This document shows, piece by piece, positions 3,204 through 16,466 of a stretch of DNA of 32,000 nucleotides. The DNA is taken from assembly GCF_000223395.1 (NCBI RefSeq), contig NC_015931.1:1170001-1202000 (forward strand). The letters are read 5' to 3'. A program made the translations under genes and the position numbers. The DNA comes from Pyrolobus fumarii 1A (GTDB lineage Archaea; Thermoproteota; Thermoprotei_A; Sulfolobales; Pyrodictiaceae). The stretch's first letter is position 1. Each line of letters opens with the position of its first letter. The notes under the pieces were generated by a model. That model saw nothing but the letters and a program-made list of their open reading frames with translations, did not search any database and was not told the DNA's origin.

Positions 3204-3506
3204 ATGGTTATGGTTGAATGTAAAAGAGGGTTCAGTGTGTATACCCGTGTATACGGTGCTCGTGGTTTGACGAGTTCTGTTGTGAGTGTGAGGGTTCCTG
3301 CGTGGGTGAAGAGGGTTCTTGAGGAGAAGAGGGTGGAGTACCAGAGTGTGGTGCGTGAGGTTCTTACTGGGCTTGCGGAGGCGGCTAGCGGTGAGGCACT
3401 CCAGAGGCTCCGGGAGGCGTTTAGGATAGCTGAGCGCGCGTGGGGCGACTCGAGGCTCTCAACCGATGAGGTTGTAGAGGCTGTGAGGTGTGCACGAAAC
3501 GACTAA
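3204..3506 (+). CDS. vapB: VapB-like antitoxin, ribbon-helix-helix (CopG-like)
   Basis: VSVRVPAWVKRVLEEKRVEYQSVVREVLTGLAEA fits strand-helix-helix. Its stop overlaps the GTG start (3490) of the downstream PIN gene by 17 nt. The true start may be GTG 3282 or 3288, giving ~74 aa. Confidence 0.55.
   Translation: MVMVECKRGFSVYTRVYGARGLTSSVVSVRVPAWVKRVLEEKRVEYQSVVREVLTGLAEAASGEALQRLREAFRIAERAWGDSRLSTDEVVEAVRCARND
3237..3254. promoter_or_regulatory. Tandem GTGTATAC repeat (two GTATAC palindromes 10 nt apart) upstream of vapB; candidate antitoxin operator
   Basis: GTGTATAC occurs at 3237-3244 and 3247-3254. This is downstream of the A/T box TGTAAAAGAG (3219-3228) and upstream of the likely GTG start at 3282. 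Confidence 0.3.
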
Positions 3507-3946
3507 GATAGCTGTTGTTGACTCGTCGCTTGTTGTAGAGGCTCTCGTTCCCAGCGAGCACACAGAGGCCGCTAGGAGGACTCTCGAGGCGCTGGCAACC
3601 ACGGCAGCCATGTTGGCACCGCAACGGTCTCTTCCAGGCGGAGGTCCTCAATGGGCTACGTAAGGCGCTACTCAGAGGCGCTATTAGGAGCATAACACCG
3701 TTACTAGAGGCTCTAGCGAGGCTACCCATAAGGCTGGTAGCAATTGACGACGTGACTTTGAGGCTTGCAGCAGAGGTGATGGTGGCCACCGGCGCTACGG
3801 GGCAAGATGCAGTCTACATAGCGCTGGCTGTGCTCACAAGAGGCGTTCTCTACACGCTGGACTCGGGGCAAGCCTCGGCCGCCGCCAAGCTGCTAGGCAA
3901 GGAACGCGTGGTCTACGTGCCCGGAGAGCACAGAACACAGAGCTAG
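3490..3946 (+). pseudogene. vapC: VapC PIN-domain toxin interrupted by a single +1 frameshift near 3619-3626
   Basis: Frame 1 (GTG 3490, stop 3661-3663) gives MHETTKIAVVDSSLVVEALVPSEHTEAARRTLEALATTAAMLAP. Frame 2 (open 3539-3946) continues NGLFQAEVLNGLRKALL...GATGQDAVYIALAVLTRGVLYTLDSGQ. Together they give a ~151-aa PIN domain with all four acidic residues in the expected order (VVDSS, QAEV, GQDAVY, TLDSG). Confidence 0.6.
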
Positions 3947-4398: not shown

Positions 4399-6408
4399 TC
4401 ATCTTCCTCGGTGTTTGTTCGGCTTGCGTGTCGTCTTCCTGCCCGTGCTGGTTTTCGGCCTCTTTTGGCTCGTTACGCTCTCCTCTAGGAGTCTCACTGC
4501 GTGTGTTGCTAGTTTCCCGCCGGCTGGGCACACGTTGACGCATATGCTGCAGGATCTGCACTTGTTAGTGTCGACGGTGTGCGGCGCTATCATGGCGCCC
4601 GTTGGGCACGATGAGACGCAGACTGCGCATCCTCCGCACGCGCCTATCATGTAGAGTGGTGCTAGTACACGCCGCGCGAAGGCACCGAACTTGTTGGCGT
4701 CGCGCGGCTCGCCGATTATCTCGACGCGCGCGTCGCTATACACCCTGGCCTCTACTCCCAGCTCCTCGTCGGTTATCCTGACGTGGTCTCCTTCCCTACT
4801 CGCCCTGTCCCTGAGCCTCGTGGCGCTAAGCAGCCTCTCGTACGCATCCAGGTCGATGCGGTCGAGCCTCGTGCGGGGGTGTAGGACGCGAGCCACGCGG
4901 CCGTCTGGTGTAGGCTCTATGCTGAGGGTGGCGTAGAGTAGCATGCTCCTGCGCAGCAGCTCCCTGGGGTTAAGCCCGAGGCGCTTTGCGAGCGCCTCTA
5001 TCTCGGCGGGGTATGCGAACCTCCACCTCCAGAAGCCGTACTCCACCCACTCTCGGGGTAGGCTGGCCCTCTTGGCGAACCGGTGGAGTGCAGACTCCCA
5101 CCTCCTCCAGAGCCTCGCGTGCGTATCGCGAACCGCCTCTATCTCGGCGAGGCGCGAGGCCGGGCACAGGTAGCAGCCGACCCTCTCGTAGCCCATGGTG
5201 TATAACGGGTTGAGGGGTAGTCTCTTCCACTGGATGTACATGTGTACCTCGAGGCTGGTCCAGTGTTGTATCGGTGCGGCTACGAGGTCGCCGTGCCGCC
5301 CGGTGGTGGCGCTAGGCGCTAGGCGGCCAGCCTGGGCCCTAGCTGTAGACTCGAAGGCCCTCTGCCCGGTGATCGTGAGGAGGCTTCCCCTCACGTGGGG
5401 CCTTAGACCGCGCTCCAGGGGCCCGAACTTGACGACCTTACAGCACCAGCGGTAGTCGCGAGCAGGCGGCCCGTATATCTCGAGGGCCCTCCAGAACGTG
5501 TCTCCCGCGCTGATCTCGAGAAGCTCTAGGCCGAGCGCATCAGCCACCCTCTCCGCCGTCTCGACCGTCTCCGGGAACTCTATCCCAGTGTCGAAGAAGT
5601 AGCCGCGAGACACTCCAGCCTCAACGGCGATCGCCGCCGCCACAGTACTATCCTTGCCGCCGCTCAGCGCCACCATGGGCTCGCCGCGGTCGAGAACACT
5701 CCTCAGCCACCCTACAGCCTCCTCCTCCAGCGCCTCCAGGTGCTCCACGTTAGCCTCTATAATGTCGTCGAGCGTCGCCCTGCTAGCCTCCCACGACTCC
5801 AAGGCACGCCTCGGCGGAGCATCAAACACCTTCTGGACGCGGACAGCGCCAGTCTCCAGGAGCTTACCAACCCCAAACCTCCTGCCATCGCTAAGCACGA
5901 GAAAGAGGCCAGGCTCACGAGGCTCCTCGTACACCCTGAGATCACTACGCTCTATGACCGAGCCGGGCCTCAGCGGCACCCGAGACCGTGCACGCGGCCC
6001 GAGACCCTCACGGTAGAGGAGCACAGCGCCAAAGTAATCGGGCTTGAATACCCAGCGTCGCCTATACAAGTCGAACATACGCGTCCCGATAGTACGCCCG
6101 CCGACGATAACCTCATCCGCCGCATCAATAGCCTGCACACGGTTAAGCAGGACTAGAGACCCTCCAGGCAACAGCCTCTTCGCGGCCTCACCCCCAAGGC
6201 TATACTCGATAGCCTCGCGGGTAACCTCCACATCGCGCTCAAAAGCCGGGCGTAGATCGCCAGGCTGCGTCAACCGCAGCTTCCAACACACGCCTCTACA
6301 ACCGCCCTTATCGAAGACGGGCACCCCGAGCTCCTCAGACCACCAGACAACCCTCATTATACTACGGAATAGCCTCGTCGCAGCCTCGCCAGTAACCCTC
6401 CTAGCCAC
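4399..6408 (-). CDS. PP-loop ATP pyrophosphatase (PAPS reductase family) fused to an N-terminal domain of unknown function and a C-terminal 2x[4Fe-4S] ferredoxin domain
   Basis: SGGKDS PP-loop at aa 249-254 (nt 5647-5664). TGQRAFES motif. CC (aa 322-323) and CxxC (aa 412-415) pairs as in Fe-S APS reductase/DndC-type enzymes. CGGCAVCVSSCP and CRSCSICVNVCP at aa 591-628. Lys/Arg-rich tail. GTG start. Confidence 0.8.
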   Translation of the reverse strand: MARRVTGEAATRLFRSIMRVVWWSEELGVPVFDKGGCRGVCWKLRLTQPGDLRPAFERDVEVTREAIEYSLGGEAAKRLLPGGSLVLLNRVQAIDAADEVIVGGRTIGTRMFDLYRRRWVFKPDYFGAVLLYREGLGPRARSRVPLRPGSVIERSDLRVYEEPREPGLFLVLSDGRRFGVGKLLETGAVRVQKVFDAPPRRALESWEASRATLDDIIEANVEHLEALEEEAVGWLRSVLDRGEPMVALSGGKDSTVAAAIAVEAGVSRGYFFDTGIEFPETVETAERVADALGLELLEISAGDTFWRALEIYGPPARDYRWCCKVVKFGPLERGLRPHVRGSLLTITGQRAFESTARAQAGRLAPSATTGRHGDLVAAPIQHWTSLEVHMYIQWKRLPLNPLYTMGYERVGCYLCPASRLAEIEAVRDTHARLWRRWESALHRFAKRASLPREWVEYGFWRWRFAYPAEIEALAKRLGLNPRELLRRSMLLYATLSIEPTPDGRVARVLHPRTRLDRIDLDAYERLLSATRLRDRASREGDHVRITDEELGVEARVYSDARVEIIGEPRDANKFGAFARRVLAPLYMIGACGGCAVCVSSCPTGAMIAPHTVDTNKCRSCSICVNVCPAGGKLATHAVRLLEESVTSQKRPKTSTGRKTTRKPNKHRGR

Positions 6409-6607
6409 GACTGGTACAACACCTCATCCATAACACCTTGCAAGCACCAACTACTCCTTTATTCACTACTGTATGAAGCTAGCAAACTCGGCATCAATCA
6501 TAATATTCGGTAATACCATTGTCTTTCAATTAGGCGAGGAAAGAAGCATAGAAGTATGCCATATCGATTATGAAGTGCTACTGTTGTGTTGATATGAAGA
6601 GGGCGAT

Positions 6608-7579
6608 ATGGGTACAAACCAATATACATACGAAGATAGTGCGGTAACTAGCCTTATAGAAGCACTTGGGCATCTACGTGGAGCAGGTATTGTGAGTCAC
6701 GTTAATATTGCATACAAAGGTCAAACTCCTCCGAGAAAGTTAGGAGATGTCATATTAGGAGGCCTTTCACGCATCTTGTTAATTGAGCTCAAAGCACCTA
6801 TAGACGCGCCTTCTCCAACCGCTGGTTGGAAATACATAATAGACAAGACTAAAGTTAGTCTCCTCCACACCATATGTACACACAATTTACAGACCATTTT
6901 AAACACATATGCACTCGGATTTGTACATGCTACTGCTGATATAAATAGCGCTCCTAGCCCAGCCACAGCCGATGCGATAGTTTCTGGATATCTTGCACCA
7001 TTAACAACAGTTATAATTCAAACACGCAAGTGCATGTTGTGCGACATAATCGTAAATGTTGATAAAAGAGCAGACTTGGTGGTAAGGGTAAAAGATGTGT
7101 CAAACGCGCCAAAGAGAAAACTCAATAACATTACAATGTGGCGTATGAAACAACTTGGCCAAGATATCCTAAGAGTCTATGATGCTACAACATTTAGAGT
7201 ATGTTGCAATGGTGATAGAGTGCTGGAAATAACAATAGGCGGCAAGACGTACACTTGTAGGGGGCTCACTTATCTTCAACTCATCAAGTGCTTGGCTAGG
7301 CCAGATCGATGGGAAAAAGGCTGTATACAACAAGGTCCTCCAACTTTGCTCGAGTTTGCCCGCGAACTTGCTGGAATAATTGACGATAATGTGTTAAAGA
7401 ACGTATTAGATAGGTTCGTAGGTGCGGAAAGACAGGTTCTTGTCCTCATATCTAACTCGGGGTACGTAGCTGCTGTAACACCTTCGATGCTTATTCATAT
7501 ACTTCCGCAGTTGCTACGTGAAAAAGAGTATGTAGATCATGCCAGGAGACTTGAAAAGATATTGAGCGGTACAACATAG
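6608..7579 (+). CDS. Orphan protein in a low-GC island; the N-terminal ~90 aa resemble an Hjc-like PD-(D/E)xK nuclease core, and the C-terminal ~230 aa are unknown
   Basis: 323-aa ATG ORF with a GAGGG 5 nt upstream. Motif order is SAVTSLIEAL...GDVIL (D47)...ILLIELK (E60, K62). CxxC at C142/C145 and CC at 199/200. GC is ~40% against 55-65% in the flanks. Confidence 0.6.
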   Translation: MGTNQYTYEDSAVTSLIEALGHLRGAGIVSHVNIAYKGQTPPRKLGDVILGGLSRILLIELKAPIDAPSPTAGWKYIIDKTKVSLLHTICTHNLQTILNTYALGFVHATADINSAPSPATADAIVSGYLAPLTTVIIQTRKCMLCDIIVNVDKRADLVVRVKDVSNAPKRKLNNITMWRMKQLGQDILRVYDATTFRVCCNGDRVLEITIGGKTYTCRGLTYLQLIKCLARPDRWEKGCIQQGPPTLLEFARELAGIIDDNVLKNVLDRFVGAERQVLVLISNSGYVAAVTPSMLIHILPQLLREKEYVDHARRLEKILSGTT

Positions 7580-7605
7580 CTGGAACCACATAGAAGCTTG
7601 CTACG

Positions 7606-7851
7606 TTACTTCTTTACATATATCGCTAGGTCTGGGCAGATGTGTTCGCATAGGAGGCATCCTGTGCATCTGTCGGCGGGCTCTACGACTTCTACCACGG
7701 GGTAGCCCTGGTTGTTGAACTTCTGCCCGGTTATGGTTAACAGTGGCTTGTCGTACTTGCCCGCCTTGTGCATGGCGTTGACGGGGCAGATGCCTATGCA
7801 GAGGCCGCAGCCCTTACACAAGTCCTCTATCACGACGGGCCTGGGCATCAC
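7606..7851 (-). CDS. 2-oxoacid:ferredoxin oxidoreductase, delta (ferredoxin-like) subunit
   Basis: 81 aa with two CxxCxxCxxxCP motifs (CKGCGLCIGICP, CTGCLLCEHICP). Its start overlaps the gamma stop by 4 nt. Confidence 0.85.
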   Translation of the reverse strand: MMPRPVVIEDLCKGCGLCIGICPVNAMHKAGKYDKPLLTITGQKFNNQGYPVVEVVEPADRCTGCLLCEHICPDLAIYVKK

Positions 7852-8393
7852 CCGCTCACCTCCCCCTTGACCATCTTGTATCCCTCCCAGAAGGCCTTGG
7901 TGTTGAGCTCGGCGAACTTCGGGTATCTCTTTGCGATGGCGTCTGCAACCTTGTTCGGGTCGACTAGCGGGACCACCGCTACGAGTGCGCCGAGGACTAC
8001 CATGTTGGCTGCTCGTAGGTTACCGAGGCGTATGGCAGTGCTCGAGGCTGGTATGCTGTAGACCTTGGCGTTGAGATCTGGTAGTGTCTTAACCGCGTCC
8101 GAGTTCACGATGACGATGCTTCCGGGCTTCACTAGGTGCGCGTAGCGCGGCACCGTCTTCGGCGCTAGGAATACGGTGACGTCAGCCTCCTTGAATAGCG
8201 GGAAGTCTATGGGTTGCTCTGAGAGCCTCATCTCGGCGGTGCTCTCGCCGCCCGATATGAACGCGTCGAACTTCTGGATTAGCGTCACGTACCTGCCCTC
8301 CTGGACGGCGACGCTACCCAGTATCTTCGCGATTGTGAGCACTCCCTGCCCGCCTATCCCCGTTATCCTCACGTCGAGCGAGCGCGCCTCCAC
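7848..8393 (-). CDS. 2-oxoacid:ferredoxin oxidoreductase, gamma subunit
   Basis: 181 aa. ITGIGGQGVLTIAKILG and SGGESTAEMRLS match the gamma-subunit pattern (GxGGQG ... GG...vr.S). Confidence 0.85.
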   Translation of the reverse strand: MEARSLDVRITGIGGQGVLTIAKILGSVAVQEGRYVTLIQKFDAFISGGESTAEMRLSEQPIDFPLFKEADVTVFLAPKTVPRYAHLVKPGSIVIVNSDAVKTLPDLNAKVYSIPASSTAIRLGNLRAANMVVLGALVAVVPLVDPNKVADAIAKRYPKFAELNTKAFWEGYKMVKGEVSG

Positions 8394-8399
8394 CGCTCT

Positions 8400-9296
8400 T
8401 CACCCCTCGGTGAGCCCGTGCACCTGATACACCCTCTCGGTGTACTCGGGCTTCGAGTCGTCGCGGTGGAAGACTCCCACGAGTATAGGCTTGCCGAACT
8501 CGATGCTAGCCTCGAAGATCTCCTTCTCGGGGTCTCTCACAGGCCTACTGTTCTTCGCGAAGTACTCTACCATGGCCCAGGGCTCCCTGAAGTTGTTGTA
8601 CCTGCCGTAGAGCACCGGGCACTGCGAGATCACCTCGATGAAGCTGAAGCCTTTGCGTAGAAGCGCCTCCTTGATGCTATTCTTCAACTGGATGAGGTGG
8701 AATGTGGTCCACCTGGCCACGTATGTCGCGCCAGCGGTCTTGAGCAGCAACGGGACGTTGAACGGCCTCTCGATGCTCCTGCCTCCGGGCACGTACTTGG
8801 TCCTCGAGCCCTCCGGTGTGGTTACGGTGGGCTCGCCACCGCTCATCGCTATGTTGAAGTTGTTCACCATTATGACCGTCATGTCGATGTTGCGCCTCGC
8901 GGCTTGCAGCGTATGGTTAAGCCCTATGCTTAGCAGGTCGGCATCGCCGCTAATGACGACCACCTTCAGCTCGGGGTTTGCCAGCTTAACGCCCATGGCG
9001 AAGGCTATGGGGCGGCCGTGGGTAGTGTGCATGGAGTCAAAGCCCATGAAGCCGCTTAGCCTGCCCGTGCACCCGATGCCCGAGATGACCACTAGCTTCT
9101 TGGGGTCAAGCTTCCCCTTGTCTACAAGCTCCTTCACAGCATGCAGGAAGACGCTCATCACCGTGCCGGCGCCGCAGCCGGGGCATAGGGTGTGTGGCAG
9201 CGCCCTGGCTCTAGCGTAGCGGCCCACGGGGTGCTCTCTCGTTAGCCTCTCTCTGGCCTCGGAGAGCCAGTCACGCTTCGCCTCCACGAGCGCCAT
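8400..9296 (-). CDS. 2-oxoacid:ferredoxin oxidoreductase, beta (TPP-binding) subunit
   Basis: CPGCGAG, GIGCTGR, and the TPP motif VISGDADLLSIGLNH...NN. 298 aa. Confidence 0.9.
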   Translation of the reverse strand: MALVEAKRDWLSEARERLTREHPVGRYARARALPHTLCPGCGAGTVMSVFLHAVKELVDKGKLDPKKLVVISGIGCTGRLSGFMGFDSMHTTHGRPIAFAMGVKLANPELKVVVISGDADLLSIGLNHTLQAARRNIDMTVIMVNNFNIAMSGGEPTVTTPEGSRTKYVPGGRSIERPFNVPLLLKTAGATYVARWTTFHLIQLKNSIKEALLRKGFSFIEVISQCPVLYGRYNNFREPWAMVEYFAKNSRPVRDPEKEIFEASIEFGKPILVGVFHRDDSKPEYTERVYQVHGLTEG

Positions 9297-9312
9297 GACA
9301 CGCTCACCTCCT

Positions 9313-10518
9313 TCAGGCTTTGGATACGAGCCTCTCTGCTAGCTCCTCGGGGGTTGGTGGGAGTTCACCAATCCTAGGCTCTAGCTCGACCCTCTCCCAG
9401 CCGCCAACATGCTCGGCCACAAGGTGCACCACCTGCCCATAGTTCATCTCCGCCACGAGTATCTTCTCGGCGTTCCTCGCGAACCTTGCGAGCTCCGGAC
9501 CGGGGAACGGCCATAGCGTGATCGGGCGGAAGAGAGCCGCCTTCACACCCTTCTCGCGGAGCATCCTCACAGCTCTCCTCGCCGCGCGAGCCACGAACCC
9601 ATACGCGACTATCACGTGAGTCGGATTCTCGTCGCCGAACACCTCGTACTCGACGATCTTGTCGCGGTTCTTGCGTATCTTGTCACACAGCCTCTTGACC
9701 AGCTGGTGGTGCACGATCGGATCATCGCTTACCGCCACGCCAAGCTCGTTGTGCGTGACGCCCGTGACGTGGATGCCGTATCCCTCGCCGAACCTGGGCA
9801 TCGGTGGCACCAGGTCCTCCTCGGGCTCGAATGGCTTGAAGTTGGGGTCGCCTGGTGGCACACGCGGCCTCTTCCTATCGACGCGCACCACTTCAGACGG
9901 GTCTGGCACCTTCACGTTCTCCATTAGCAGGACGGTCATCTTATCCGCGAGGATGAATGCGGGCACCCTCCACCTCTCAGCAGCGTTAAACGCCTTGATC
10001 GTGTACTCGAGTAGCTCCTGGGCGCTAGACGGCGAGTAGGCTATGATCTCGTAGTCGCCGTGCGCACCCCACTTCGCCTGCATAACATCCTGCTGCGAGG
10101 CCTTTGTGGCCTGGCCCGTGCTAGGCCCAGCCCTCATACCGTCGATTATCACCACAGGGGTCTCGGTCATCACAGCATAGCTGATATGCTCCGTCATGAG
10201 GCTCATGCCGGGACCGCTCGTAGCCGTGAACGCCTTGACACCCGCCCACGAAGCTCCTATCGCGGCAGCCAACGCTGATATCTCATCCTCGGTCTGGATG
10301 ACCACTCCGCCGGCCCTCGGGAATAGCTCTACAAGCGCCTCGGCGATGTCGGTCGCAGGCTCTATCGGGTAGAAGGCGAAGAACCTGGCACCAGCCAGGA
10401 TAGCGCCTATCGCGATAGCCCACGCGCCAGACTCGAAGTAGTAGCCCGGCTTTACGGGCAGCTTTGGAGGCTCCTCCTGCAGCTTAACCAGGGGCTTTAG
10501 CTGCACGATGCCCCTCAC
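9313..10518 (-). CDS. 2-oxoacid:ferredoxin oxidoreductase, alpha subunit
   Basis: FFAFYPIEPATDI and TATSGPGMSLMTE motifs typical of OFOR alpha. 401 aa, GTG start. Confidence 0.9.
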   Translation of the reverse strand: MRGIVQLKPLVKLQEEPPKLPVKPGYYFESGAWAIAIGAILAGARFFAFYPIEPATDIAEALVELFPRAGGVVIQTEDEISALAAAIGASWAGVKAFTATSGPGMSLMTEHISYAVMTETPVVIIDGMRAGPSTGQATKASQQDVMQAKWGAHGDYEIIAYSPSSAQELLEYTIKAFNAAERWRVPAFILADKMTVLLMENVKVPDPSEVVRVDRKRPRVPPGDPNFKPFEPEEDLVPPMPRFGEGYGIHVTGVTHNELGVAVSDDPIVHHQLVKRLCDKIRKNRDKIVEYEVFGDENPTHVIVAYGFVARAARRAVRMLREKGVKAALFRPITLWPFPGPELARFARNAEKILVAEMNYGQVVHLVAEHVGGWERVELEPRIGELPPTPEELAERLVSKA

Positions 10519-10526
10519 CCCGGGCT

Positions 10527-12119
10527 TTACTCCTCTATGTCGCTCCTCCAGGGCTCGGGCTTCCCGCGTATCTCCTCGGGTAGCTCCTTCTCTATCCTAG
10601 CCAGGTACTTGGCGATCTTCTCGGCCTTCTCGAAGTCGTAGAGCCTGCCCATCATTATCCTCTGTGCGGCTGGGCTGCCGGCGCCGTGCAGACTCTCGAT
10701 CAGGAACATGACGCCAAGGCTAATGTTCTCTAGTAGCCTCACCATCCTCAGCCTGTGCTCGGCCGGGTAGTCTGGCAGGCACTGGAAGTACTTCTCGAGG
10801 AGTGGCTTGAGCTTCGGGTGCATGAAGTCCTTGGCGCTTGGCGCTGTGCCGAGCACGCCACCGGCGATATCGTGGCTTAGCCTCGCTATCTCGTATGGGA
10901 ACCTGGTGACTAGCTGTTTAGCGACGTTGGAGAACATGGGGTCTACCCAGTAGCACCCGCTGCCCATCTTCCTGCCGCGCCAGGATGCGGCGATGCTAGC
11001 GGCGTACATGGCCTCGGTGAGGAAGACCATCTCGACGAGCTTCTCGCGTATGTGGTGCTTATCGGCGATGCCCATCTGCTTGGCTAGGTTGTAGGCAGCG
11101 CCGATGATGATATCCGCTAGGCCTGACTTGCAGCCGCCGTACGCGTGGCGGTGGTAGCTGGAGAATATCTCGACGAGCGGGTAGGCGAACTCCCACTCCT
11201 TGAACATGAAGACCCTCTCCCATGGCACGAAGACATCGTCGAAGATTATCATTGCCTCGTGGTTGAAGGCGCCGGGTAGCGAGTCTATCTCGTTCTCCTC
11301 GAAGCGGCGGCAATCGTTCACCTGCCTGCCAACGATGATCTTTATGCCCTCGGTGTCGAGGGGCACGGCAAAGGATATGGCGTAAGCCTCGTCCTTCTCT
11401 GTCATTGCGCGCGTGGGCATGACTATAATCTCCTCGGATGTGACGACGCCAGTGATGCTCATCTTGGCGCCTCTAACCACTATGCCATCATCACGTACCT
11501 CGACTACCCTCACATAGGCGTCTGGGTTGGGCTGCTGGTGTGGACGGAGGGAGCGCACACCCTTAACATCGGTCATAGCGCCGGCTAGGGCAATGTCATT
11601 CTTCTGGACGTACTTGAGGAACTCTATGAACCTCTTGTGGTAATCTGACCCCTTCTTCTTGTCGATCATGTGGGTGACGATGTGAAGGGCGTTTATCGCG
11701 TCCCATCCGACACAGCGCTGGACGCACGCGCCTACCTTGTGGCTCAGGGCGCGCAGCAGCTTAACCTTAGCCTCGAGGTCCTCGCGAGACTGGTGAATAT
11801 GGTTGAACCTGTTAACTTCCTCGTTTATGTAGGGGCTGTAGGCCACAGCGAGCTTCCTGAGGGCAGGGTCCCACGCAGCCTCATAGGTTACCGCGTATGC
11901 CCTTACGGTGGGCTTTAGGAAGGGGTGCTTAGTCACATCCTCTACCTGCTCGCCAAGCACGTAGATCTCGGCCTTCTTCCTATGCCTTATAGCCTGGATA
12001 TACTCCTCGGGCTTCCTAAGCCCCAAAGAATCCCACCCGAGTGGATCGCCAGGCGAAGTGCGAGTAAACCCACTATTGAAAACGTTTGCTTGGGAATGCA
12101 CACGTGCAGCTCCCAGCAA
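10527..12119 (-). CDS. abfD: 4-hydroxybutyryl-CoA dehydratase (4-hydroxyphenylacetate hydroxylase-like fold)
   Basis: GACVQRCVG (C-x3-C) and YHRHAYGGC (H-x6-C) have the spacing I recall for the [4Fe-4S] ligands of the clostridial enzyme. Length is ~500 aa. The start is uncertain: TTG 12119, GTG 12101 or TTG 12026; the last gives MGLRKPEEYIQAIR. Confidence 0.8.
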   Translation of the reverse strand: MLGAARVHSQANVFNSGFTRTSPGDPLGWDSLGLRKPEEYIQAIRHRKKAEIYVLGEQVEDVTKHPFLKPTVRAYAVTYEAAWDPALRKLAVAYSPYINEEVNRFNHIHQSREDLEAKVKLLRALSHKVGACVQRCVGWDAINALHIVTHMIDKKKGSDYHKRFIEFLKYVQKNDIALAGAMTDVKGVRSLRPHQQPNPDAYVRVVEVRDDGIVVRGAKMSITGVVTSEEIIVMPTRAMTEKDEAYAISFAVPLDTEGIKIIVGRQVNDCRRFEENEIDSLPGAFNHEAMIIFDDVFVPWERVFMFKEWEFAYPLVEIFSSYHRHAYGGCKSGLADIIIGAAYNLAKQMGIADKHHIREKLVEMVFLTEAMYAASIAASWRGRKMGSGCYWVDPMFSNVAKQLVTRFPYEIARLSHDIAGGVLGTAPSAKDFMHPKLKPLLEKYFQCLPDYPAEHRLRMVRLLENISLGVMFLIESLHGAGSPAAQRIMMGRLYDFEKAEKIAKYLARIEKELPEEIRGKPEPWRSDIEE

Positions 12120-12123
12120 AACG

Positions 12124-13008
12124 TTACGGCGTGTAGTGCCTGGAGGCTATTCTCCACTCGCCGCTTGGCTCTACGACTAGCCTGGCGCGGCGGGCCGCCC
12201 AGCAGTTAAACGCCACAGCGACTGGGTATGTGGCAGGGTGCCTATGAGCAACCTCAATGTGCACGTCTAGCACTGTGGGGTAACCGCCCAGCCCCATGGG
12301 GCCAATCTCTAGCTTGTTCAGCTCCTCTACTAGCATCTCTTCGAGCCTCGCTATCCTAGGGTCACTGTTCCTGGAGCCAACCTCGCGTACCGTAGCCGCA
12401 TACTTCGCTAGGAACATTGTCTCCTCCACCGTGCCGCCGATGCCCACGCCAACAATGGTCGGCGGGCATGGGAGCCCACCAGCCTCAACAACCGCGTCAA
12501 TCACCTTCTCTAGCGCGGCCTCGAGGCCCTTGGCTGGCGGCACCATGTAGAGCCTAGCGGGGTACTCCGAGCCACCACCCTTGGGCACCACAACAATCTC
12601 GAGCCTTTCGCTTTTAGCTGGCAGCCAGTGTATTACGGGCACGTGGAGCCCGGTGTTGTCCCCCGAGTTCCTACCGGTGACCGGATGCACGGCGTTAGGC
12701 CTCAGCGGGACCTCCCTCGTAGCCCTCCTAACAGCCTCGATTATGGCCTCCTCAACCTCCCTCATTCCCATTGGGAAGCCGCTCGGGTACCACACGTAGA
12801 AGGTTAGGAGCCCCGTATCCTGGCAGATCGGGCGCCCCTCCCTCGCCGCCACCTCTATGTTCCTAAGCACCGCTTGCAGCTGCGCCTTCGCGGCACCCTC
12901 GCTCCTCTCCGCGGCAGAACGAATAGCCTCATAGACGTCCAGGGGTAGCCTCGTCTCGGCGATACGGATAGCCTCTACTATAGCGTCCACGAGGAGCTTC
13001 CTGTCCAT
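12124..13008 (-). CDS. fumA: Class I (Fe-S) fumarate hydratase, alpha (N-terminal) subunit
   Basis: PICQDTGLLTF (CQDTG motif). 294 aa fits the alpha chain of two-subunit Fe-S hydro-lyases. No beta-subunit gene is adjacent. Confidence 0.8.
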   Translation of the reverse strand: MDRKLLVDAIVEAIRIAETRLPLDVYEAIRSAAERSEGAAKAQLQAVLRNIEVAAREGRPICQDTGLLTFYVWYPSGFPMGMREVEEAIIEAVRRATREVPLRPNAVHPVTGRNSGDNTGLHVPVIHWLPAKSERLEIVVVPKGGGSEYPARLYMVPPAKGLEAALEKVIDAVVEAGGLPCPPTIVGVGIGGTVEETMFLAKYAATVREVGSRNSDPRIARLEEMLVEELNKLEIGPMGLGGYPTVLDVHIEVAHRHPATYPVAVAFNCWAARRARLVVEPSGEWRIASRHYTP

Positions 13009-13035
13009 TGTACTAGCCCCTAGCTATGCGCCCCG

Positions 13036-13063
13036 AGACCCACGGTATTAGAGGGGTGGGTCT
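13036..13063. promoter_or_regulatory. 8-bp inverted repeat AGACCCAC / GTGGGTCT bracketing the A/T-containing GGTATTAGAGGG in the divergent fumA / sdhA spacer
   Basis: The arms are at 13036-13043 and 13056-13063, perfectly complementary with a 12-nt spacer, ~30-55 nt upstream of the fumA ATG (13008). Confidence 0.3.
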
Positions 13064-13127
13064 TGCTCGCCCCGTAGTGTGTTTCAAAAACCGGCGTAAC
13101 GGTTCAAAGAGGGGCGAACGATAGGCC

Positions 13128-14843
13128 TTGAGCATCGAGGGTATAGAGAAGCTCGGAGTTTATGATGTCGTTGTTGTTGGTGCTGGGCTAGCGGGCCTAA
13201 TGGCCGCGATTCATGCTGCCCAGAGGGGTGTCAGCGTCCTAGTCGTATCCAAGAGTCACCCGGTTAGGAGTCACACGGCGGCCGCCGAGGGCGGTATAGC
13301 GGCGTGGATACCGGGTGCGAGCGACCCGCGAGACTCGTGGCTACAACACGCCTATGATACGGTGAAGGGTGGCGACTTCCTCGTGGATCAACACGCGGCC
13401 GAGATACTTGCTCGAGAGGCTTACCCGACGATAATGCTGCTCGAGAGGTGGGGCGTGCTATTCACGCGCGACGAGGAGGGTCGTATCGCCAGGAGGCCCT
13501 TCGGCGGCCATAGGTATCCGCGTACACGCTTCGTAGAGGACAAGACGGGAATGGCGATAATGCACGTTGTGTACGAGCAGGCGTTGAGACTCGGCATTGA
13601 TATGCTCGACGAGGTGTTTGCGCTCGATGTTGTAGTCTGGCAGGGTAGAGTCTATGGCGTTGTGGCGGTTGATCTTCGCGAGGCGAGGCCCCTCTACATA
13701 CAAGCGAAGGCCGTTGTATTGGCAGCCGGCGGTGCAGGCATGATATACAAGCATACCACCAACAACTACTTCAACACTGGCGATGGTTACGCGATGGCGC
13801 TTAGGGCTGGCGCTGCTCTCAAGGACATGGAGTTCATCCAGTTCCATCCAACCGCGTTATACCCCACCGACATACTCATCACGGAGGCTGCGAGAGGGGA
13901 AGGCGGCCACCTTATCAACGCCAAAGGAGAGAGGTTCATGGCGCGTTATGCACCCCAGTGGATGGAGCTAGCGCCTCGCGATGTCGTGGCGAGGGCGATC
14001 GCCACCGAGATCCTGGAGGGTAGGGGGTTCGAAGGCGGCTATGTGCTGCTCGATCTCACGCATCTAGGGGAGGAGAGGATTCGAGAGAGGCTCCCGACGG
14101 TGAGGGAGGCGGCGAGGCGCTACGCGGGCGTGGATCCGGCAAAGGAGCCTATACCGGTGAGGCCCGCGCAACACTACATGATGGGCGGTGTAGACGTAGA
14201 CATTGATGGCCATAGCCCGGATGTTACCGGGTTGTTCGCAGCCGGCGAGACTGCATGCATCTCTGTACACGGGGCTAACAGGTTGGGCTCGAATAGCCTC
14301 CTTGAGGCGGCGGTGTTCGGGAAGCGTGCTGGCCTCGCAGCGGCGTCTTATGCTCTCGGGAGGGGCTCGGGAGAGCCCCCTGCTGAGGCTGTGAGGGAGC
14401 CCGTGGAGAGGCTGTACTCGTTGCTGCGCCGCGAGAGGAGCGGTGTGGAGCTTGGCGAGGCTAGGAGAGAGCTACGCGAGGTGATGTGGGTTAAGGTGGG
14501 CCTGTTCCGCGAGGAGAAGGGGCTTGCAGAGGCTGTGTCCAGGCTAACAGACTTGTACAAGAGGGTTCTTGATGGCATCGTGGTGCCGAGTAGGGGGCGT
14601 GGCTGGTACGACCTGGCGTTGGCCTACGAGACTCTCAACATGGTGACTGTTGGCCTTGTTGTGGCTAGGGCTGCTCTTGAGCGGAGAGAGAGTAGAGGCG
14701 CCCACTATCGCCTCGACTATCCAAAGCGCGATGACGAGAACTACTTGAAGCACAGTCTTGTTCGTCTCCGTGGCGATAGCCTCGAGGTAGGATGGAGGAA
14801 GGTTGAGGTGAGGAGGTGGGAGCCCGGTGAGCGCGCCTACTAA
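13128..14843 (+). CDS. sdhA: Succinate dehydrogenase/fumarate reductase flavoprotein subunit
   Basis: VVVVGAGLAGLMAA FAD fold, RSHTAAAEGGIAA (His for covalent FAD), FHPT, GGHLIN and RESRGAHYR motifs. TTG start. Confidence 0.9.
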   Translation: MSIEGIEKLGVYDVVVVGAGLAGLMAAIHAAQRGVSVLVVSKSHPVRSHTAAAEGGIAAWIPGASDPRDSWLQHAYDTVKGGDFLVDQHAAEILAREAYPTIMLLERWGVLFTRDEEGRIARRPFGGHRYPRTRFVEDKTGMAIMHVVYEQALRLGIDMLDEVFALDVVVWQGRVYGVVAVDLREARPLYIQAKAVVLAAGGAGMIYKHTTNNYFNTGDGYAMALRAGAALKDMEFIQFHPTALYPTDILITEAARGEGGHLINAKGERFMARYAPQWMELAPRDVVARAIATEILEGRGFEGGYVLLDLTHLGEERIRERLPTVREAARRYAGVDPAKEPIPVRPAQHYMMGGVDVDIDGHSPDVTGLFAAGETACISVHGANRLGSNSLLEAAVFGKRAGLAAASYALGRGSGEPPAEAVREPVERLYSLLRRERSGVELGEARRELREVMWVKVGLFREEKGLAEAVSRLTDLYKRVLDGIVVPSRGRGWYDLALAYETLNMVTVGLVVARAALERRESRGAHYRLDYPKRDDENYLKHSLVRLRGDSLEVGWRKVEVRRWEPGERAY

Positions 14844-15753
14844 ACGCCGTGTGGTGATCCGCGTCAAGCGGTTTGACCCCGATACGGGCAGGATATGGTG
14901 GCAGGAGTACGAGGTAGAGGTGGATCGCTACCAGAGTCTCGCGACGGTGCTCCAGAGGATAAGGGAGGAGGTTGACCCGACGCTGGCTTTCCAGGCTGGC
15001 TGCCGCTTCGGCGTCTGTGGAGCATGTGCCGTGAAGGTGAATGGTATCCCGAGGCTGGCTTGCCAGACGCTAGTGCTCAACGAGGCTGGTGATGAGGGGG
15101 TTGTCACTGTTGAGCCTCTAGACTTCTTCCCGGTCGTGAGGGATCTCGTCGTTGACAGGAGGTTTATTGACGGTGCGTTTAGGAAGGCTAGGGCGTGGCT
15201 AGAGCCTGGCCCAGAGCCTCTCGAGGACGGCTTTCGGATTGAACCGGCGTTGCAGAAGAAGCTGTGGAAGCTGGACAAGTGCATCGTGTGCGGTGTATGC
15301 TTCTCGGTGTGCCCGCTTCTAGACGCTGGCTTGGACTACCCCGGGCCAGCTGCGATAGCGAAGCTAGTACGCTTCTCCATGGATCCTAGGGATGCTCTGC
15401 GCGACGCTAGGCTGGAGGACGCTAGCGAGTGGATATGGAGGTGCTTGAGGTGTGGGCTTTGCGCGCTACACTGCCCCTATAGTATACAGACGCCTGGTGC
15501 CGTCGCCGAGGCACGACGCCGTCTGATCGAGAAGAGGGTAGGGCGGCCTAGCGACATACGCCACGTTGAGGCTATCGTTGAGAGTGTGAAGAGGCTCGGA
15601 CGTATGAACGAGAAGCGGGTATTCATCGAGACTGCAGGGTTTGCACGTGCGTTGCGAGAGGCTATAGTATTGGCGAGGAAGGTGGGCTTGCCGCGTCCCC
15701 CCGAGCGTGTTAGTGGAGAGGTTCTCGAGTTGCTAAGGGGTGATGAGGCGTGA
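14827..15753 (+). CDS. sdhB: Succinate dehydrogenase/fumarate reductase iron-sulfur subunit
   Basis: CRFGVCGACAVKVNG ([2Fe-2S]), CIVCGVCFSVCP and CLRCGLCALHCP. The GTG start overlaps the sdhA end by 17 nt. Confidence 0.85.
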   Translation: MSAPTKRRVVIRVKRFDPDTGRIWWQEYEVEVDRYQSLATVLQRIREEVDPTLAFQAGCRFGVCGACAVKVNGIPRLACQTLVLNEAGDEGVVTVEPLDFFPVVRDLVVDRRFIDGAFRKARAWLEPGPEPLEDGFRIEPALQKKLWKLDKCIVCGVCFSVCPLLDAGLDYPGPAAIAKLVRFSMDPRDALRDARLEDASEWIWRCLRCGLCALHCPYSIQTPGAVAEARRRLIEKRVGRPSDIRHVEAIVESVKRLGRMNEKRVFIETAGFARALREAIVLARKVGLPRPPERVSGEVLELLRGDEA

Positions 15754-16466
15754 AGAGGGTGGGCTACTACCCTGGCTGTGCGGTCAAGAGCTTCACGCCA
15801 CACATTGTAGGGAGGGTTGAGGAGCTCCTAGGCAGACTTGGCCTCGAGGTGTTCGAGATACGCGACTGGGTTTGCTGTACGGGCGGCGTGGCAGAAGAGG
15901 CAAAGAAGGACTCCATAGAGAGGATCAGCGTCCTTAACGCTCTTCTCGCGAAGAAGCAGGGAGCAGAGATACTAGCCACCTCGTGCTCTATGTGCCTCTC
16001 GACGCTATACCGTGGCTTGCGCCGGGCACCAGCGAGCCTAGTGGAGAGCATAGCATCCAAGCTTAGCGTAGAGCCCAGCCCGCTACCCCGCGTAGTGCAC
16101 ATTGCCGATGTGCTTCTGGAGCACGCCTCGAGACTAGAGCTTGACGTTAGCGGACGTGTCGCCCTATACCCTGGCTGTGGCTACCTAGTGGCTCACGGTG
16201 CACGAGAAGCGCGTAAACGGATCAAGAGGCTAGCAAAGCTGGCGGGGCTCAAGAACTATGGGATTGTCGTGGGGTGCTGCGGGTTTACAATCTATGCTGC
16301 AAGGCCGAGAGAGGCTAGTGTCGTAGCCAAGCGGCTAGAGGAGAAGATGGGAGATGCAGACATGGTTGTGACGCTGTGCCCTCTATGCAAGCTCACACTA
16401 GCGCGGTTCACAGGGCTAAAGACAGTGCTACTCGAAGAGGTTGTCACCAGCGTCTCTCCACGCTAA
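15750..16466 (+). CDS. sdhC: E-type SDH subunit C, HdrB-like with two CCG domains
   Basis: YYPGC...VCCTGG...TSCSMC and LYPGCG...GCCGF...LCPLCK form two CCG-type cysteine motifs. There are no TM helices. 4-nt overlap with sdhB. Confidence 0.75.
   Translation: MKRVGYYPGCAVKSFTPHIVGRVEELLGRLGLEVFEIRDWVCCTGGVAEEAKKDSIERISVLNALLAKKQGAEILATSCSMCLSTLYRGLRRAPASLVESIASKLSVEPSPLPRVVHIADVLLEHASRLELDVSGRVALYPGCGYLVAHGAREARKRIKRLAKLAGLKNYGIVVGCCGFTIYAARPREASVVAKRLEEKMGDADMVVTLCPLCKLTLARFTGLKTVLLEEVVTSVSPR

Follow-up and report, generated by a model that had tools for sequence, protein, structure and literature searches.

The low-GC islet and its gene

Within a 32-kb stretch of the Pyrolobus fumarii 1A genome (positions 1,170,001 to 1,202,000 of contig NC_015931.1; hereafter the window, whose first nucleotide is position 1), a short islet of low G+C (guanine plus cytosine) content is occupied by a single gene, Pyrfu_1270. 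A first-pass annotation made from the sequence alone had placed about 1.2 kb at roughly 40% G+C between positions 6408 and 7606, and recomputation bears this out: the islet has 41.9% G+C (0.419), as compared with 0.574±0.037 for other 1197-nt windows of the same 32 kb (z = -4.2), and it is the sole comparable dip within them. The earlier counts per 60-nt row (25 and 22 G+C inside, 34 and 41 in the flanks) were also reproduced. The flanking genes are those first named, encoding a phosphoadenosine phosphosulfate (PAPS) reductase-like protein (PAPS_reduct) with a 4Fe-4S domain on the left and the delta subunit of a 2-oxoacid:ferredoxin oxidoreductase (OFOR) on the right. In 60-nt steps, G+C at the left edge falls from 0.62, 0.63 and 0.55 to 0.43 and 0.37, a step that starts at the GTG (6408) of the 669-aa PAPS gene and is complete within about 60 nt. 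At the right edge it rises from 0.43 and 0.45 to 0.58, with low G+C continuing about 60 nt past the delta TAA (7606) into the 3′ end of the delta gene (0.45 for 7606-7665, 0.58 from 7666).

Codon usage sets the gene apart in the same direction. G+C at third codon positions (GC3) is 0.35 in Pyrfu_1270, against 0.74-0.83 in the adjacent genes and 0.53-0.83 in other open reading frames (ORFs), making it the sole gene-sized low-GC3 ORF in the window. Its codon adaptation index (CAI) is 0.483, against 0.710±0.064 in 24 window genes (minimum 0.615; z = -3.6), so that both statistics proposed in the first-pass annotation, windowed G+C and codon adaptation, mark it as deviant. The charged-minus-polar index of the protein is 0.9, and those of its two homologues (see below) are 1.8 and -1.9, as compared with about 12-15 for most host proteins; by this index, none of the three has the usual amino acid bias of hyperthermophiles. 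All three are basic, with net charges of +9 to +13 (about +9 for Pyrfu_1270).

Pyrfu_1270 is a real protein-coding gene. The islet holds one 323-aa ORF, as first described, and its product is identical to AEM39129.1 (Pyrfu_1270, UniProt G0EGA4) of P. fumarii 1A. An in-frame stop lies 5 codons 5′ of its ATG (6608). None of 2000 mononucleotide shuffles of the islet yields an ORF as long as 323 aa (longest, 245 aa), and G+C at codon positions 1, 2 and 3 (0.51/0.41/0.35) forms a coding-type gradient opposite to the host trend. The start codon is annotated in several ways. RefSeq model WP_167827872.1 (295 aa) starts at a GTG at V29, which removes the family-invariant Y8-E9-D10, and the Logan gene call P0006 (267 aa) starts even further downstream. 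Because homologue conservation begins at residues 4-10, the GenBank 323-aa model (ATG 6608) is supported over the RefSeq model. A literature search found no paper on the Pyrfu_1270 locus tag or accessions.

A family of three

The family of Pyrfu_1270 has three known members, and both homologues are metagenomic. A word-indexed search over 5.8 billion proteins matched Pyrfu_1270 to itself only, and an exhaustive phmmer search over 1.84 billion cluster representatives added P0003 (284 aa, E = 3e-7) and P0004 (309 aa, E = 6e-4). These two distant sequences are the full yield of homologues from a total of about 15 billion proteins. No phmmer homologue came from Pyrolobus-like metagenome-assembled genomes (MAGs), though MAG proteins are within the same collection. 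The match to P0002 (1003 aa, E = 5e-18) was rejected as a tandem-repeat artefact made up of 13 matches of a 36-residue hydrophobic stretch (query 278-313). No further members emerged from a profile search of the 5.8-billion-protein set, from two scans with the profile over viral contigs and two over metagenome contigs, or from tblastn against phage and plasmid collections.

P0003 and P0004 are 25-27% identical to Pyrfu_1270 over residues 4-231. The three-member alignment (A1) has 34 invariant columns, including Y8-E9-D10, K37, D47, E60, K62, P64, W74, Y76, G104, H107, D111, P131, T134, Y191-D192, C199, K227-C228 and R275. Conserved positions in the middle and C-terminal region are Y191-D192, C199, G202, L225, K227-C228, G243, R275 and T291, and the helical C-terminus of Pyrfu_1270 is weakly conserved. 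As the first-pass annotation had remarked, this residual part resembles nothing recognized, and the family libraries hold no match for it. The notion of a Cys-rich C-terminal module fares less well. Cysteines 142, 145, 199, 200, 217, 228 and 239 are present as listed earlier, with a further, unlisted Cys at 90. CxxC at 142/145 is gapped in both homologues, and just C199 and C228 of the eight cysteines are conserved.

Each family member stands alone at its locus. P0004 lies on a 15.9-kb contig (L008) from IMG metagenome 3300005095, an ID that is listed together with one other IMG Object ID under data availability in an East Pacific Rise sulfide-chimney study (PMC7329443). The contig encodes a helix-turn-helix protein and TnpB (5445-7446 region), a TumE toxin, a DUF3782-PDDEXK_10 protein and many short unannotated orphan ORFs (ORFans). 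A Pyrolobus-like MAG encodes a protein with 46% identity to the DUF3782-PDDEXK_10 protein, pointing to a related crenarchaeon as host. P0004 itself occupies a low-GC segment (1-2700, G+C 0.39-0.42, versus 0.50-0.55 elsewhere on the contig). A 21-nt inverted repeat (1203-1223/2937-2957, 18/21) brackets P0004 and is absent from the other two loci. P0003 lies on a 1.65-kb contig (L007) and has a gene G+C of about 0.49; the roughly 740 bp 3′ of it (915-1651) have 0.37 G+C, are interrupted by stops in every one of the six frames and match no Rfam family. The three loci have no common flanking DNA, tRNA gene, Rfam family or terminal repeat.

Gene order around the islet

Related contigs that carry one or both flanking genes place the islet in a variable setting. 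On the PAPS side, three relatives (L001, 79% identity; L003, 50%; L004, 45%) each have different upstream neighbours, and none of them has the OFOR operon or a Pyrfu_1270 homologue at the PAPS gene. DNA similarity between P. fumarii and L001 ends at the PAPS-gene start codon. On the OFOR side, four contigs (L012-L015) have gamma subunits that are 84-88% identical and three different genes after delta: a VWA_CoxE protein in L012, a THUMP-SPOUT methyltransferase in L013, and a PIN toxin with its antitoxin, followed by the PAPS gene, in L014 and L015. Read in the orientation of the window, L014 has the order PAPS→ vapB→ PIN→ ←delta, with Csx/CARF-like, Csa3 and Cas7 genes upstream of PAPS. P. fumarii has the order vapB→ PIN(frameshifted)→ ←PAPS, Pyrfu_1270→, ←delta. 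An intact vapBC pair thus fills the PAPS/delta gap in L014 and L015, and the PAPS gene is oriented opposite to that of P. fumarii. The vapB-like antitoxin of the window is intact and 74% identical to that of L014; the PIN/VapC gene is split over two reading frames and is therefore probably a pseudogene.

Gene order across these contigs marks the PAPS gene and the OFOR operon as old neighbours and the gap between them as a variable slot. Among the sequences compared, the junction of PAPS start and delta stop is specific to P. fumarii, and the low-GC gene exactly fills it. The first-pass annotation had pictured an insertion between genes that are adjacent in relatives; the synteny comparison instead finds vapBC between them, the PAPS gene inverted and no empty site. 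As no relative has an empty PAPS-start/delta-stop junction, insertion is not directly demonstrable by comparison. What the comparison shows is a gene that is absent from relatives, including the orthologous loci of five Pyrolobus-like contigs (L001 and L012-L015), and that sits on a novel junction.

Deviant composition and codon usage are combined with absence from close relatives and a patchy distribution, as in laterally acquired islets. With composition, codon usage and phyletic pattern in agreement, and no copy at the five Pyrolobus-like loci, the lateral import of Pyrfu_1270 as a single gene, proposed at first sight, is well supported by sequence comparison. P. fumarii is represented by one sequenced strain only; Logan contigs L009-L011 carry this locus from that strain, not from a second one.

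The AT-rich spacer between the divergent PAPS gene and Pyrfu_1270 (Table 1) belongs to the islet. This foreign spacer would now have to supply both the promoter and the ribosome-binding site of the PAPS gene; GAGGTG lies 12-17 nt upstream of the PAPS-gene GTG, inside the 199 bp. The spacer would then carry the expression signals of both genes. Rfam has no match in the islet or the homologue flanks, save a sub-threshold match to a snoRNA model (E = 0.29) inside the delta gene.

The Csx/CARF-like, Csa3 and Cas7 (DevR) genes found upstream of PAPS in L001 (5668-9123) and L014 (9594-12543) are missing there in P. fumarii. According to its genome paper, P. fumarii has 0 CRISPR repeats (PMC3156397). 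Loss of a CRISPR-Cas locus may have accompanied the rearrangement seen here.

The OFOR operon is in turn part of a carbon-metabolism cluster (window 7606-16466) that also includes an HpaB-family protein (530 aa), a fumarate hydratase subunit and succinate dehydrogenase/fumarate reductase-like genes. The HpaB-family protein is possibly of the 4-hydroxybutyryl-CoA dehydratase type. The order of the cluster is conserved in L012-L014, with extra genes between fumarase and HpaB (PDDEXK_10 in L012, HEPN/NTP-transferase in L013).

Table 1. Features of the islet and its surroundings (window coordinates)
Feature	Position	Strand	Basis or remark
Low-GC islet	6409-7605	.	Bounded by the PAPS-reductase/4Fe-4S start codon and the OFOR delta stop codon
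Divergent intergenic spacer, 199 bp, AT-rich (40% G+C)	6409-6607	.	Sequence, composition; no alignable counterpart in L001
Pyrfu_1270, 323-aa protein-coding gene, founder of a three-member uncharacterised family	6608-7579	+	ORF, codon-position G+C, homologues P0003/P0004
N-terminal domain, ~135 aa, candidate PD-(D/E)xK core	6608-7012	+	Limits suggested by conservation and AlphaFold2 secondary structure
Candidate core residues	Y8-E9-D10, 6629-6637; D47, 6746-6748; E60-x-K62-x-P64, 6785-6799 (E60-x-K62, 6785-6793); H107; D111	+	Alignment A1, hhalign register
Family-specific middle and C-terminal regions	7013-7576	+	No family match
669-aa PAPS_reduct (PP-loop) + 4Fe-4S protein	4399-6408	-	Host flank; inverted relative to the L014 orthologue
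OFOR delta subunit (2x[4Fe-4S] ferredoxin-like)	7606-7851	-	Host flank; last gene of the operon
alpha-beta-gamma-delta operon, four-subunit 2-oxoacid:ferredoxin oxidoreductase	7606-10518	-	
vapB-like antitoxin (3240-3503) and frame-shifted PIN/VapC (3502-3588 + 3623-3943)	3240-3943	+	

A candidate PD-(D/E)xK core

The case for a nuclease core begins with the invariant residues. E9, D10, D47, E60 and K62 are identical in 3/3 members and stand in the canonical PD-(D/E)xK order; they account for five of the 11 invariant charged or His residues, and match the order and spacing of that active site. D47 and E60 are 13 residues apart, as are D33 and E46 of Pfu Hjc. The nucleotide positions first given for D47 and E60-x-K62 were reproduced (Table 1).

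Profile alignments point to the same strands. When the family is aligned by hhalign with four solved Hjc/Hje sequences, D47/E60/K62 fall on D33/E46/K48 (score 17.4, P = 0.09, probability 0.6%), and when it is aligned with two PDDEXK_10 domains, the E-x-K strand and the next helix are matched (18.8, P = 0.047). The P. fumarii N-terminal domain alone scores 20.0 against Hjc (P = 0.013), with residues 19-66 on Hjc 12-57, which is higher than all 44 control segments from real host proteins. The best alignments of all six member-by-template pairs lie on the same strands, and column shuffles reach the observed scores in 0 of 40 trials. Hjc and PDDEXK_10, both true PD-(D/E)xK families, have a mutual score of 10-12, below the score of the family against either; given that true families score just 10-12 at such alignment depth, the non-significance of the family match carries little weight. 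A regular expression for the motif matches none of 107 control segments, and between 0.04 and 0.8% of shuffled sequences. Secondary structure in AlphaFold2 models (pLDDT, predicted local distance difference test, of 39-42) has a helix at 11-25 and strands at 56-61, 74-78 and 105-110, which is compatible with, without being diagnostic of, an alpha-beta-beta-beta-alpha-beta fold.

A number of results weigh against reading Pyrfu_1270 as an imported nuclease. Real-protein controls reach maxima of 17.1 and 19.5, so that the family-profile scores of 17.4 and 18.8 lie at their upper edge; taken as single sequences, two of the three members do not rise above the hhalign background. The regular expression was defined post hoc on the sequence, and it misses half of true Hjc sequences. 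Pfam returns no nuclease family at E<=10 for whole proteins, N-terminal domains or the consensus; PHROGs and PADLOC, queried with all three members, and NCBIfam, queried with Pyrfu_1270, return no match, and none of the four libraries has a family that Pyrfu_1270 itself matches at E<=10; and phmmer and hmmsearch against the PDB find no relevant sequence and no nuclease structure. The AlphaFold2 models are unreliable (pLDDT 38.9 from the single sequence; pLDDT 42.2 and predicted template modelling score 0.41 from the three-sequence alignment), and a Foldseek search of these low-pLDDT models against the PDB and BFVD gives no match at E<=0.001. The low charged-minus-polar bias casts doubt on protein stability at the growth temperature of the host. 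The hallmarks of an integrative element are also missing, as there is no tRNA gene in the window, L007 or L008, no integrase and one gene only, and the three loci have no repeats in common.

The PD-(D/E)xK core proposed at first sight is plausible and has support in part. The residues are invariant and align with the Hjc and PDDEXK_10 strands; the P values (0.09, 0.047 and 0.013) are marginal and the libraries hold no match. The odds that Pyrfu_1270 carries a PD-(D/E)xK nuclease core, as judged from these alignments, are about even.

Mobility and defence context

Free-standing selfish or defence nucleases include methyltransferase-less Type IV-like restriction enzymes and the free-standing homing endonucleases of phages. 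No methyltransferase, integrase or partner gene is adjacent to the family member in the window, L007 or L008. PADLOC does not recognize any of the three members, and the neighbours of Pyrfu_1270 are metabolic genes. With no PADLOC match, partner or tRNA gene, membership in a recognizable defence system, a restriction-modification pair, a provirus or an insertion sequence was rejected.

Three repeats were considered as possible element borders: a direct repeat at 6547-6559/7589-7601 (CATAGAAGTATGC / CATAGAAGCTTGC, 11/13), a 20-nt inverted repeat at 6540-6559/7596-7615 (70%) and the 21-nt inverted repeat of L008. All are weak and unshared, and were judged to be due to chance.

Interpretation

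The explanation that we favour, with a probability of about 0.5, is that Pyrfu_1270 is a recent stand-alone import at a rearrangement junction, probably a PD-(D/E)xK-type nuclease, with a selfish or conflict-related role. What we infer about its fold, catalytic residues, DNA substrate and biological role is as follows. The gene may derive from an unsampled low-GC pool of mobile elements or foreign genomes in hot hydrothermal habitats, and it now lies between the PAPS-reductase-like gene and the OFOR operon, at a rearrangement junction particular to the lineage. The N-terminal ~135 residues would form a metal-dependent DNA endonuclease core, with E9/D10 on the first helix, D47 on a strand and E60-x-K62 on the next strand. 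D47 and E60 are predicted to bind a divalent metal, assisted by E9/D10, and K62 to activate water for phosphodiester cleavage. Y191-D192, C199, K227-C228 and the helical C-terminus may serve DNA binding, substrate specificity or oligomerisation. Intracellular disulfides are common in hyperthermophilic Crenarchaeota, and a C199-C228 disulfide is possible. Single-gene mobility, a slot beside toxin-antitoxin genes and the lack of a partner fit a selfish or conflict nuclease better than a housekeeping enzyme. Pyrfu_1270 might thus act as a methyltransferase-less restriction-type or homing-type enzyme, for example, rather than as a housekeeping Holliday junction resolvase.

The import evidence applies equally to an imported mobile-element orphan that is not a nuclease at all. 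An archaeal virus or plasmid that has yet to be sampled could have supplied, for example, a regulator, a structural component or a protein that binds DNA, in which D...E-x-K would be kept for structure or binding and resemble the nuclease motif by chance. This alternative is doubtful but has a substantial share of the probability. The nuclease goes unrecognized in library and structure searches, hhalign scores are within reach of real proteins, the members are basic (+9 to +13), and archaeal mobile-element proteins mostly have no known function (PMC2718499). Coincidence would, however, have to place five of 11 invariant charged or His residues in PD-(D/E)xK order and spacing and to direct the best profile alignments to two independent PD-(D/E)xK families onto those strands every time, and shallow profiles of true families match each other no better. 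A different origin is considered improbable: Pyrfu_1270 could have resided in the Pyrolobus lineage for a long time, or could be a relic that is silent or in decay, and its low G+C would then reflect relaxed selection or a local functional constraint. The locus has no integrase, tRNA or att-like repeats, a single strain of P. fumarii has been sequenced, and the neighbouring PIN pseudogene shows local decay, all of which would suit a resident. Against this, 323 codons remain intact in 42% G+C DNA (0/2000 shuffles) with the family invariants kept, G+C steps sharply at the gene borders, no homologue occurs in Pyrolobus-like contigs or other genomes of the collection, and the sole homologue with context again lies in a low-GC patch, in a different genome.

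Descent from Hjc, which the first-pass annotation had raised with its label of an Hjc-like nuclease and, as one possibility, a resolvase paralogue, is the explanation given the least credence. An Hjc/Hje paralogue with an added C-terminal module, working in host recombination or repair, would account for the shared order of acidic and Lys residues, the D-to-E spacing of 13 and the coverage of Hjc 12-57 in the best N-terminal alignment. It is contradicted by the absence of any Pfam or PDB match to Hjc at E<=10, by the length of the protein, by missing Hjc invariants and a different spacing from the helix E to D (see below), and by a foreign composition, patchy distribution and absence from close relatives unlike those of a core repair gene. 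Pyrfu_1270 is not a member of the Hjc family, and that label is best given up. A more far-reaching version of the imported nuclease is likewise improbable. In this version, Pyrfu_1270 would be the founder of a new family of mobile nucleases confined to vents, which combine a divergent PD-(D/E)xK core with a C-terminal module of a novel type that sets specificity. The genes would move as low-GC cassettes of one gene each, by a homing-like route or by break and repair. DNA cleavage by the enzyme would have created or made use of the rearrangement junction where Pyrfu_1270 now lies, with its inverted PAPS gene, displaced vapBC and lost neighbouring Cas genes.

If the favoured reading of Pyrfu_1270 as an imported nuclease is true, the gene would represent a new and very rare PD-(D/E)xK family from the nearly unsampled mobile gene pool of organisms that live at temperatures of at least 100 °C, and nucleases with such thermostability are of some use in practice. 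Pyrfu_1270 is also a clean, datable case of gene import at a rearrangement junction, in a genome without published CRISPR repeats. Otherwise, Pyrfu_1270 is one among many atypical archaeal orphan genes, and no long-standing question is opened by it.

Comparison with known systems

Relative to Hjc and Hje (PDB 1GEF, 2WCW, 1OB8 and 4TKD), Pyrfu_1270 has the same E...D...E-x-K order and the D-to-E spacing of Pfu Hjc, but is 2.3-2.6 times longer (323 versus 123-147 aa). The spacing from the helix E to D is 38, as compared with 24 in Hjc, and the invariant non-catalytic residues of Hjc (G5, R10, G20, F21, R25 and K81 in alignment A3, Pfu numbering) have no counterpart among the A1 invariants.

In PDDEXK_10 (PF07788, Crenarchaeota), as in Pyrfu_1270, an acidic residue on an N-terminal helix is followed by a hydrophobic strand that carries D and then by a strand with hhhh-E-x-K. 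The best hhalign alignment, in this register, sets the PDDEXK_10 strand '...ILVEFKAS...' against 'ILLIELKAP', 'ILFVEFKAP' and 'VVVEFKSP' of the family. Pyrfu_1270 differs in that its similarity to this family reaches only P = 0.047, that no family of the Pfam clan matches it and that about 190 extra residues have no known counterpart.

Like free-standing selfish or defence nucleases, Pyrfu_1270 is a single, partnerless gene between conserved host genes, in which the putative nuclease domain is fused to an unrelated domain. It differs from them in having no PADLOC match, and, compared with homing nucleases, its three family loci have no common flanks and hence give no sign of a homing target.

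Pyrfu_1270 also resembles ORFans imported from integrative elements, 96% of which are compositionally atypical (Cortez, Forterre, Gribaldo 2009, PMC2718499); atypical composition in an ORFan is a recognized mark of such import. Pyrfu_1270 is likewise AT-rich and almost without relatives (a few metagenomic sequences), and likewise lies in a variable slot beside toxin-antitoxin genes. It departs from these ORFans in being single rather than clustered, in having 323 aa, which is longer than a typical ORFan, and in having no integrase or element genes left beside it. Pyrfu_1270 represents a new and very small family whose kind is familiar: an imported orphan of atypical composition, possibly a divergent PD-(D/E)xK nuclease.

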